Shown here one piece after another: positions 58,837 through 63,139 of a stretch of DNA of 64,000 nucleotides. The DNA is from Escherichia coli (GTDB taxonomy: Bacteria; Pseudomonadota; Gammaproteobacteria; Enterobacterales; Enterobacteriaceae). How positions within the stretch are numbered: position 1 is the stretch's first letter; every line of letters begins with the position of its first letter. Made by a program: the position numbers and the translations under genes. The stretch lies in the NCBI RefSeq assembly GCF_009931435.1, contig NZ_CP043414.1. One strand, given 5' to 3'. The notes below the pieces were generated by a model, which saw only the letters and a list, made by a program, of their open reading frames with translations, was not told where the DNA came from and ran no database searches.

Positions 58837-60086
<1,250 letters not shown>

Positions 60087-60263
60087 TAGAGTAAGTAACT
60101 GGTTAATTTACATTCTGGTCGCGTGCGCAAATACGCTTTTCCTCACACAGTTGTCAAGTGTTACGTTTAGATAATTGCTATCCGGAAAAGCTTCTGCTAT
60201 TTATAGCGGCCTCATTTTTCCCCCGAACATGGGGATCGATAGTGCGTGTTAAGGAGAAGCAAC

Positions 60264-60719
60264 ATGCAAGAAGGGCAAAACCGTAAAACATCGTCCCTGA
60301 GTATTCTCGCCATCGCTGGGGTGGAGCCATATCAGGAGAAGCCGGGCGAAGAGTATATGAACGAAGCCCAGCTGGCGCACTTCCGTCGTATTCTGGAAGC
60401 ATGGCGTAATCAACTCAGGGATGAAGTCGATCGCACCGTTACACATATGCAGGATGAAGCAGCCAACTTCCCGGATCCGGTAGACCGTGCAGCCCAGGAA
60501 GAAGAGTTCAGCCTCGAACTGCGTAACCGCGATCGCGAGCGTAAGCTGATCAAAAAGATCGAGAAAACGCTGAAAAAAGTGGAAGACGAAGATTTCGGCT
60601 ACTGCGAGTCCTGCGGTGTTGAAATTGGTATTCGTCGTCTGGAAGCGCGCCCGACAGCCGATCTGTGCATTGACTGCAAAACGCTGGCTGAAATTCGCGA
60701 AAAACAAATGGCTGGCTAA
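60264..60719 (+). CDS. dksA: RNA polymerase-binding transcription factor DksA
   Basis: 151 aa from [15 protein letters not shown]..., C4 zinc finger [25 protein letters not shown]; ORF track adds 6 codons upstream. Confidence 0.96.
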
Positions 60720-60747
60720 TTACAGCCGTTCCATCACGTTTACCACA

Positions 60748-60776
60748 GGCGGGAAATGCTCCCGCCTTATTTTTTG
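60748..60776 (+). terminator. Intrinsic terminator downstream of dksA, overlapping annotated gluQ start
   Basis: GGCGGGAaatgcTCCCGCC followed by TTATTTTTTG; gluQ first ATG (60756) sits in the loop. Confidence 0.65.
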
Positions 60777-61682
60777 TTCAACGAGATGACAGACACACAC
60801 TATATTGGCCGCTTTGCCCCCTCTCCTTCCGGCGAGCTTCATTTTGGCTCTCTGATTGCCGCGCTTGGAAGCTTTCTACAGGCTCGCGCCCGGCAAGGTC
60901 GCTGGCTTGTTCGCATTGAAGATATCGATCCGCCTCGTGAAGTTCCCGGTGCCGCAGAGACCATCCTGCGCCAGCTGGAACATTACGGTTTACACTGGGA
61001 CGGCGATGTTCTCTGGCAATCGCAACGTCACAACGCCTATCGCGAAGCACTCGCATGGTTACATGAGCAAGGGTTAAGTTATTACTGCACCTGCACGCGC
61101 GCACGTATTCAAAGCATTGGCGGTATTTACGACGGTCATTGCCGGGAGTTGCATCATGGGCCAGAAAACGCTGCTGTACGTATTCGCCAGCAGCATCCGG
61201 TCACCCAGTTTACTGACCAGCTGCGCGGCATTATTCATGCCGACCAAAAACTGGCGCGGGAAGATTTTATTATTCATCGTCGTGATGGTCTATTTGCCTA
61301 TAACCTGGCGGTGGTCGTTGACGATCACTACCAGGGCGTGACAGAAATTGTTCGTGGCGCGGATTTGATCGAACCCACGGTGCGCCAAATCTCGCTGTAC
61401 CAGCTTTTTGGCTGGCAGGTGCCAGATTACATTCATTTGCCACTGGCACTTAATCCACAAGGCGCTAAACTTTCCAAGCAGAATCATGCGCCTGCGTTGC
61501 CAAAAGGCGATCCTCGGCCGGTGTTAATCGCGGCACTTCAATTTCTGGGCCAGCAGGCAGAAACACACTGGCAGGATTTCAGCGTCGCGCAAATTCTCCA
61601 GTCAGCCGTCAAAAACTGGCGGCTCACCGCAGTGCCTGAGTCGGCAATTGTAAATTCAACATTCTCAAATGCGTCATGCTGA
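60756..61682 (+). CDS. gluQ: Glutamyl-Q tRNA(Asp) synthetase GluQ (YadB)
   Basis: 308-aa ORF with class I aaRS-like motifs; first ATG lies in loop of dksA terminator hairpin, alternative ATG at 60786 would give 298 aa. Confidence 0.88.
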
Positions 61683-61741
61683 GCTATGATTAGCCGCTAT
61701 TTTTTTGTCCTGAATGATGTTTGACACTACCGAGGTGTACT

Positions 61742-63139
61742 ATTTTTACCCGAGTCGCTAATTTTTGCCGCAAGGTGCTAAGCCGCGAGGAAAGCGAGGC
61801 TGAACAGGCAGTCGCCCGTCCACAGGTGACGGTGATCCCGCGTGAGCAGCATGCTATTTCCCGCAAAGATATCAGTGAAAATGCCCTGAAGGTAATGTAC
61901 AGGCTCAATAAAGCGGGATACGAAGCCTGGCTGGTTGGCGGCGGCGTGCGCGACCTGTTACTTGGCAAAAAGCCGAAAGATTTTGACGTGACTACTAACG
62001 CCACGCCAGAGCAAGTGCGCAAACTGTTCCGTAACTGCCGCCTGGTGGGTCGCCGTTTCCGTCTGGCTCATGTGATGTTTGGCCCGGAGATTATCGAAGT
62101 TGCGACCTTCCGGGGACATCACGAAGGTAACGTCAGCGACCGTACGACCTCCCAACGCGGGCAAAACGGCATGTTGCTGCGCGACAACATTTTCGGTTCC
62201 ATCGAAGAAGACGCCCAGCGCCGCGATTTCACTATTAATAGTCTGTATTACAGCGTGGCAGATTTTACCGTCCGTGATTACGTTGGCGGCATGAAGGATC
62301 TGAAGGACGGCGTTATCCGTCTGATTGGTAACCCGGAAACGCGCTACCGTGAAGATCCGGTACGTATGCTGCGCGCGGTTCGTTTTGCCGCCAAATTGGG
62401 CATGCGCATCAGCCCGGAAACCGCAGAACCGATCCCACGCCTGGCTACCCTGCTGAACGATATTCCTCCTGCACGCCTGTTTGAAGAATCGCTTAAACTG
62501 CTACAAGCGGGCTACGGTTACGAAACCTATAAACTGTTGTGTGAATACCATCTGTTCCAGCCGCTGTTCCCGACCATTACCCGCTACTTTACGGAAAATG
62601 GTGACAGTCCAATGGAGCGGATCATTGAGCAGGTGCTGAAGAATACTGACACGCGTATTCATAACGATATGCGCGTCAACCCGGCGTTCCTGTTTGCCGC
62701 CATGTTCTGGTATCCCCTGCTGGAAACAGCACAGAAAATCGCGCAAGAGAGCGGCCTGACTTATCACGACGCTTTCGCGCTGGCAATGAACGATGTGTTA
62801 GACGAAGCCTGCCGTTCACTGGCGATCCCGAAACGGCTAACCACTTTAACGCGTGATATCTGGCAGTTACAGTTGCGCATGTCCCGCCGTCAGGGTAAAC
62901 GCGCATGGAAATTACTCGAACATCCGAAGTTCCGTGCCGCTTATGACCTGCTGGCACTGCGTGCTGAAGTAGAACGCAACGCCGAGCTACAACGTCTGGC
63001 GAAATGGTGGGGTGAGTTCCAGGTTTCCGCGCCGCCGGACCAAAAAGGGATGCTTAACGAACTGGATGAAGAACCGTCACCGCGTCGTCGTACTCGTCGC
63101 CCGCGCAGACGTGCGCCGCGCCGTGAGGGCACCGCATGA
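61742..63139 (+). CDS. pcnB: Poly(A) polymerase I
   Basis: 465 codons from ATT at 61742 ([12 protein letters not shown]...) with GAGG 6 nt upstream; first in-frame ATG is ~55 codons downstream; nucleotidyltransferase GGxVRD motif ([13 protein letters not shown]). Confidence 0.9.

Follow-up and report, generated by a model that had tools for sequence, protein, structure and literature searches.

The closest described system to the locus studied here is the dksA-gluQ-rs terminator of Shigella flexneri and Escherichia coli. Caballero et al (2012), working in S. flexneri, reported the terminator between the two genes, the AUG codon within its loop, the co-transcription of dksA and gluQ-rs and the absence of any promoter specific to gluQ (BMC Microbiol 12:226, PMC3542578). 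They cited as analogues the T1 terminator upstream of dnaG, in the rpsU-dnaG-rpoD operon, and the recA-recX terminator, which has approximately 10% read-through (PMC3542578). In both of these an intrinsic terminator likewise lies between co-transcribed genes, and the downstream gene likewise has no promoter, a poor ribosome-binding site and an expression level that is a small fraction of that upstream; the genes are different, however, the elements are non-homologous, and the dksA terminator overlaps a spurious annotated start. In E. coli K-12, the operon ligT-sfsA-dksA-yadB-pcnB-folK served Conway et al (2014) as the worked RNA-seq example of a complex operon, in which an internal promoter and an internal terminator produce a dksA-specific transcription unit (PMC4161252). 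Over-extended starts corrected by initiation-site profiling form another known class, and yadB/gluQ is itself a listed case in Nakahigashi et al (2016), with no difference from the locus described below.

In this paper we examine the dksA-gluQ junction in a 64-kb stretch of Escherichia DNA (the window, meaning the whole stretch analysed) by sequence comparison, RNA folding and the use of published transcript and ribosome data. The window comes from a divergent Escherichia lineage and not from mainstream E. coli, since among 5,424 complete E. coli genomes a single one (strain RMDEC465, 99.8%) reaches 99% identity to it across 60600-61000, most being approximately 94.8% identical. It carries the same element as S. 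flexneri and E. coli, at the orthologous position and in the same gene order, with the first AUG in the loop and the second 27 nt further on; the strain background alone differs (the region is ~95% identical to typical E. coli), with no functional difference. We conclude with high confidence that the junction combines a leaky dksA terminator with a mis-annotated start, and that gluQ is made only by read-through and is translated from 60786.

The + strand at 59382-63139 carries sfsA, dksA, gluQ (also gluQRS or yadB) and pcnB, as determined from the sequence, the list of open reading frames (ORFs) and annotation transferred from RefSeq records. Upstream of dksA is a strong Shine-Dalgarno sequence, AAGGAG (duplex energy -9.2 kcal/mol). 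The features of the junction are as follows.

60264..60719, + strand: dksA coding sequence, 151 aa, stop codon TAA at 60717-60719 (ORF list and transferred RefSeq annotation)
60720..60746, + strand: dksA 3'UTR spacer from stop codon to hairpin, 27 nt, moderately conserved only (from the sequence)
60747..60767, + strand: terminator hairpin, with 5' arm AGGCGGGA at 60747-60754, loop AATGC at 60755-60759 and 3' arm TCCCGCCT at 60760-60767
60768..60777, + strand: U-tract TATTTTTTGT; the K-12 in vivo RNA 3' end is equivalent to 60771 (...CCCGCCUUAUU-3')
60756..60785, + strand: ten-codon over-extension of the 308-codon annotation, with ATG1 (60756-60758) in the hairpin loop; not a functional start
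60786..61682, + strand: true gluQ (gluQRS/yadB) coding sequence, 298 aa, with ATG2 at 60786-60788 and stop codon TGA at 61680-61682; no Shine-Dalgarno sequence upstream

The long gluQ ORF, read from ATG1, has 308 codons and ends at 61682, and from the next in-frame ATG (60786) it has 298. GluQRS of the window begins MTDTH, as against MTDTQ in K-12 and S. flexneri. By transferred RefSeq coordinates pcnB starts at ATT, 61742-61744 (a non-canonical AUU), and the ORF list gives only an upstream TTG at 61721; the AUU start is a published feature of E. coli pcnB.

Termination and read-through between dksA and gluQ

The hairpin begins 28-29 nt past the dksA stop, the stem GGCGGGA/TCCCGCC, when counted from 60748, lying 29 nt past it. 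A reading made earlier from the sequence alone had described a GC hairpin and U-tract 29 nt after the dksA stop and had placed the first ATG of the 308-codon ORF in the loop; direct inspection of the sequence agrees in coordinates and in description, with 60756-60758 inside the loop at 60755-60759. A consensus terminator scan, together with the sequence, gave a stem of 8 bp with 6 G-C pairs, a 5-nt loop and 8 T in the next 10 nt. RNA folding, which had been proposed as a check, returned a stable hairpin of -14.5 kcal/mol alone, and the surrounding 81-nt region folded at -20.1 kcal/mol (z = -3.3), with 0 of 200 shuffles folding as well.

A site was counted as of terminator quality when it had a perfect stem of 7 bp or more with 5 or more G-C pairs, followed by 10 nt of which 7 or more were T. 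The 64-kb window has four such sites, whereas 30 dinucleotide shuffles gave 0.10 +/- 0.30. Besides the dksA hairpin, these strong terminator-like sites are at 1692 (+), 4719 (+) and 30946 (-), and two of the three match K-12 Term-seq 3' ends, 220052(-) and 190800(+), which indicates that the filter selects real terminators and that the window corresponds to the reverse complement of approximately 157-221 kb of the K-12 map. A small hairpin, CTGCTATTTATAGCGG followed by CCTCATTTTT, was also seen at 60194-60219, between sfsA and dksA and near the promoter and leader of the latter. Its sequence accompanies an 'orphan' K-12 Term-seq 3' end at 160652(-), approximately window 60216, in one growth condition, and it may serve as the terminator of sfsA or represent an end inside the leader of dksA.

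Termination within the U-tract is seen directly in K-12. The Term-seq data of Adams et al (2021) place an RNA 3' end at MG1655 160097(-), with 3,097,035 reads in LB at OD 0.4 and 254,767 reads on a second condition sheet (PMC7815308). The 61-nt flank given for this end is identical to window 60721-60781, and its 51st nucleotide, 160097(-), corresponds to window 60771; the register of the Term-seq column was checked against SgrS, whose end is the last U of its U8 tract. On the strength of this identity, the window strain would be expected to act like K-12 and S. flexneri. The 3' end has a Rho score of 1.16 ('No') and an intrinsic terminator score of 7.47 against a threshold of 3.0, and coverage in 800-nt windows around it is 250 upstream and 62 downstream, the downstream value being 72 with bicyclomycin (PMC7815308). 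The ratio 62/250 corresponds to an apparent read-through of ~25% in these K-12 data. Adams et al class the end as 'internal to gluQ', 15 nt from the start codon (PMC7815308), because the 308-codon start was used.

The consequences of termination for the downstream gene were measured in S. flexneri. RT-PCR demonstrated that dksA and gluQ-rs are co-transcribed, with a product that spans the junction (PMC3542578). Deletion of the terminator or intergenic region resulted in 10-fold more lacZ expression downstream, and mutations in the stem raised downstream lacZ more than 2-fold (PMC3542578); since the effect of stem mutation was only 2-fold and that of deletion 10-fold, other parts of the deleted segment may also contribute.

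The locus therefore shows a G+C-rich stem and U-tract, an in vivo 3' end and Rho insensitivity (both in K-12) and an effect of stem mutation or deletion (in S. flexneri), which are the properties of an intrinsic terminator, and the hairpin and U-tract at 60747-60777 are the Rho-independent terminator of dksA, as already published. It also has the two marks of a leaky intra-operon terminator, transcripts that span it and a downstream gene with no promoter of its own under the few growth conditions covered. Two proposals of the sequence-only reading are borne out by these data: that gluQ depends on read-through of the dksA terminator (RT-PCR, lacZ fusions, the RNA-seq operon and Term-seq/DirectRNA-seq coverage of 250/62), and that it is thereby coupled to dksA transcription (the co-transcript, the lack of a separate promoter and the 10-fold rise without the terminator).

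Conservation of the hairpin and other explanations of the junction

A DksA query was used to collect 80 loci, one genome per species, from Enterobacteriaceae, Erwiniaceae, Yersiniaceae, Morganellaceae, Hafniaceae, Budviciaceae, Vibrionaceae and Shewanella. Junctions were compared where gluQ lies no more than 700 nt downstream of dksA (n = 77, from the fetched loci, two E. coli records and the window). A stable hairpin, of -11.7 kcal/mol or stronger, is present in all 77. Of their U-tracts, 23 are good (at least 6 of 10), 22 intermediate and 32 poor (3 or fewer), and poor U-tracts are frequent in Erwiniaceae, Yersiniaceae and Morganellaceae. In these three families dksA is followed directly by a strong hairpin (-14 to -29 kcal/mol), usually without a U-tract, and its role there may be that of an mRNA 3' stabiliser or processing barrier and not that of a canonical intrinsic terminator.

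When 28 Enterobacteriaceae junctions, representing approximately 20 genera, were aligned, the sole invariant intergenic columns were GGCGGG, CCCGCC and ATG2. The 6 core G-C pairs do not vary in the 28 sequences, covariation is seen in the flanking and top pairs (double changes at 5 pairs), and 82% of the hairpin pair cells are paired, compared to 44-53% for slid controls. A GGGAG...CUCCC core is also found in the junction hairpins of Vibrio, Photobacterium, Plesiomonas and Shewanella (AAGGGAGC.., GCGGAGCU..). Judged by sequence, the common stem core suggests either an ancient homologous terminator or a sequence-specific constraint.

Such constancy could also mean that the hairpin is not a passive leaky terminator but the expression platform of a regulated attenuator, that is, a riboswitch or a site at which a protein, an sRNA or DksA/ppGpp controls read-through. 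We consider this unlikely. The stem core is invariant in sequence, beyond what pairing requires, across the ~20 genera and recurs in the four more distant ones, and the junction RT-PCR signal in S. flexneri rose 20-fold in stationary phase with changes of 1.3-fold in the dksA and gluQ signals (PMC3542578), which is what regulated read-through might look like; but the hairpin is preceded by just 27 poorly conserved nucleotides, and U-tract quality varies widely between genera, as expected of a simple tuned terminator. The riboswitch search of Caballero et al was negative (PMC3542578), and in our own search of 60000-61900 there was no Rfam match at E <= 1 save a chance match to a snoRNA. The only antiterminator-type complements to either arm were weak, G-U-rich 6-7-mers, none of them credible, and an antiterminator or riboswitch was accordingly rejected: neither a conserved sensor nor an alternative structure was found upstream of the hairpin at this locus.

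An outer helix that would sequester ATG2 was a further candidate. The minimum free energy structure of the window pairs CAUC (~60732) with GAUG at ATG2 and leaves AUG2 with an unpaired probability of 0.05. This helix is not conserved, which also counts against an attenuator, and it was rejected: K-12-like E. coli has a different predicted partner, the median unpaired probability of AUG2 over 65 loci is 0.41 with partners scattered upstream and downstream, and the 60.6% of cells paired in the alignment come mostly from a semi-conserved CAU opposite the invariant AUG.

A related idea, which we regard as quite unlikely, is that the terminator is more than passive in one of two ways: (a) a trans factor, possibly DksA/ppGpp-modified RNA polymerase, tunes read-through, or (b) the dksA 3'UTR gives rise to a functional, stable RNA. 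There is room for either because of the invariant stem core, the 20-fold rise of the junction signal and the tRNA-like number of 3'-end reads. The Term-seq count equivalent to 60771 (~3.1 million) is near that of the 3' end of the tRNA aspV (3.5 million) and, among the rows listed, ~10-fold above other mRNA 3' ends; a count this high could reflect a very stable dksA 3'UTR fragment. We found no positive evidence for a tuning factor or a stable 3'UTR RNA, however, and the body of the 3'UTR is not notably conserved. A conserved seed for a dksA 3'UTR sRNA was rejected, as mean column identity in 26 enterobacterial sequences was 0.58 for the upstream spacer and 0.52 for the downstream spacer, which is no real signal. 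No mention of a dksA 3'UTR-derived RNA was found in the literature searched or in the accessible RIL-seq data, and the supplements of Dar & Sorek (2018) list neither dksA nor gluQ.

It is very unlikely that gluQ has its own promoter, either a predicted sigma-24 site or one induced by stress, with a terminator that simply insulates two independent genes. Caballero et al mention a RegulonDB-predicted sigma-24 site for E. coli gluQ and describe an osmotic-stress phenotype of the gluQ mutant (PMC3542578), and promoter activity has been assayed under few growth conditions only. The promoterless fusion pVCDT, however, which runs from dksA +58 through the gluQ start and lacks the dksA promoters, gave baseline activity (PMC3542578), and gluQ is thus without a promoter of its own under the conditions tested. 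Our sigma-E scan of 60100-60790 found no consensus match with fewer than 4 mismatches in 11, and a sigma-70 scan found nothing upstream of gluQ. The hairpin ends just 18 nt before ATG2, too short a distance to accommodate a promoter downstream of the terminator, and read-through transcripts were seen by both RT-PCR and RNA-seq. A dedicated promoter with no read-through, the outcome that the sequence-only reading had set against its own proposal, is not what the published data show.

The start codon of GluQRS

Edman degradation of S. flexneri GluQRS gave the N-terminus TDTQYIGRFAP, which places initiation at the second Met (Caballero et al 2012, PMC3542578). Because the sample came from a T7/pET construct, this alone could not exclude a minor 308-aa isoform, but most of the gap is filled by chromosomal data from tetracycline-inhibited ribosome profiling (TetRP). 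Nakahigashi et al (2016) re-annotated the starts of ~150 K-12 genes, and yadB/gluQ is entry 102 of their list, its start moved +30 nt to the ATG at 160082 and marked '1. new site' on manual inspection (PMC4909307). TetRP depth in three K-12 samples was 13.7, 72.9 and 24.8 at the new start and 0, 0 and 0 at the old one, and the N-terminal peptide TDTQYIGR of the yadB product was recovered by COFRADIC proteomics (PMC4909307). Position 160082, which is equivalent to window 60786, follows the Term-seq 3' end by 15 nt.

The structural and comparative data agree. YadB in PDB entries 1nzj and 4a91 has 298 residues, of which 1-298 align to 11-308 of the long ORF, and ATG2 lies a few residues before the class-I GRFAPSPSG...HxGS segment, as the start does in the solved structure. 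An ATG is found 5-9 codons before GRFAPSP in 65 of the 77 junctions; in the other 12 the start precedes the motif by 11-20 codons. Four junctions, all from Escherichia, have an in-frame loop ATG, and in 49 of the 77 the frame contains a stop somewhere between the end of dksA and the GRFAPSP motif. The loop of one divergent Escherichia, at 88% identity, reads AATTAC and so contains no ATG, and in E. fergusonii the terminator is present with no Met at the loop position (PMC3542578). Among the upstream sequences listed for each genus, inspection revealed no obvious Shine-Dalgarno sequence before ATG2 in any, and in the window the anti-Shine-Dalgarno duplex energy at ATG2 is only -1.8 kcal/mol, compared to the -9.2 kcal/mol of dksA.

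Both forms of the protein circulate in databases, 308 aa in UniProt GLUQ_ECOLI and many older GenBank entries and 298 aa in RefSeq WP_ entries, and the RefSeq/PGAP gluQRS start is the equivalent of 60786 in all three genomes inspected. The description of 60756 as the annotated start is thus true for only part of the databases: it holds for UniProt and older GenBank records and does not hold for RefSeq. A functional N-terminal extension should have a conserved upstream start, a conserved extension peptide and initiating ribosomes at ATG1, and none of these was found. ATG1 is an over-extended database start, and GluQRS begins at ATG2, 60786.

A conditional 308-aa isoform, in which the hairpin melts and ribosomes start at ATG1 so that the structure gates translation, is extremely improbable and essentially excluded: the ORF is open from 60756, folding predicts an unpaired loop AUG, databases commonly carry the 308-aa form and the 5' arm of the hairpin resembles a Shine-Dalgarno sequence (anti-Shine-Dalgarno complementarity -6.3 kcal/mol; a possible site there was also noted in PMC3542578), but those bases are inside the stem and end 1 nt before ATG1, initiating-ribosome depth in K-12 is zero at ATG1 and 13.7-72.9 at ATG2, TDTQYIGR is the sole N-terminal peptide found, the Edman product is the ATG2 form, 73 of the 77 junctions (a divergent Escherichia among them) have no loop ATG, in-frame stops lie upstream of the motif at 49 loci and the ten extra residues are without counterpart in GluRS or GluQRS structures.

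The sequence-only reading had offered two alternatives, translation from 60786 to give 298 aa, or expression by read-through with a start codon sequestered in the hairpin, and these proved not to be exclusive. The first is correct for translation, on the evidence of Edman sequencing, TetRP and N-terminal proteomics, the crystallised protein, RefSeq and the comparative analysis. The second is correct for transcription, without its proposal that a hairpin-sequestered start is used or regulatory, which is not supported, as ATG1 shows zero initiating ribosomes and is absent outside Escherichia.

Expression of GluQRS and its annotation

The evidence best fits the following account of the leaky dksA terminator. 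Most transcripts from the dksA promoters stop in the U-tract, at about 60771, the terminator being deliberately incomplete, and a minority, roughly 10-25%, pass it and provide the only source of gluQ mRNA. Synthesis of GluQRS is thereby tied to dksA transcription, at a much lower level. On the read-through transcripts ribosomes initiate at ATG2 (60786), 18 nt beyond the hairpin and with no Shine-Dalgarno sequence, to make the 298-aa GluQRS; weak read-through and weak initiation together probably keep the enzyme low. Beyond gluQ the operon runs on to pcnB-folK, which also have a promoter of their own. The loop ATG at 60756 arose by chance in the Escherichia loop sequence and was mistaken for the start by older annotation pipelines.

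As the element has been known in detail and published since 2012, its confirmation in another Escherichia lineage adds little. The comparison is a modest extension of that work, in that a hairpin is present in 77 of 77 junctions, no genus has an obvious Shine-Dalgarno sequence and the stem is invariant in Enterobacteriaceae. For annotation, 308-aa GluQRS entries carry ten residues that are not made and should be read as 298 aa; the longer entry also has the effect that the dksA terminator is scored 'internal to gluQ' in genome-wide studies, the tables of Adams et al being an example. If a trans factor did act on read-through, it would tune the supply of GluQRS during stress. The leaky terminator with its downstream start explains how the cell has a low level of the enzyme that glutamylates queuosine in tRNA-Asp, a level that follows dksA transcription.
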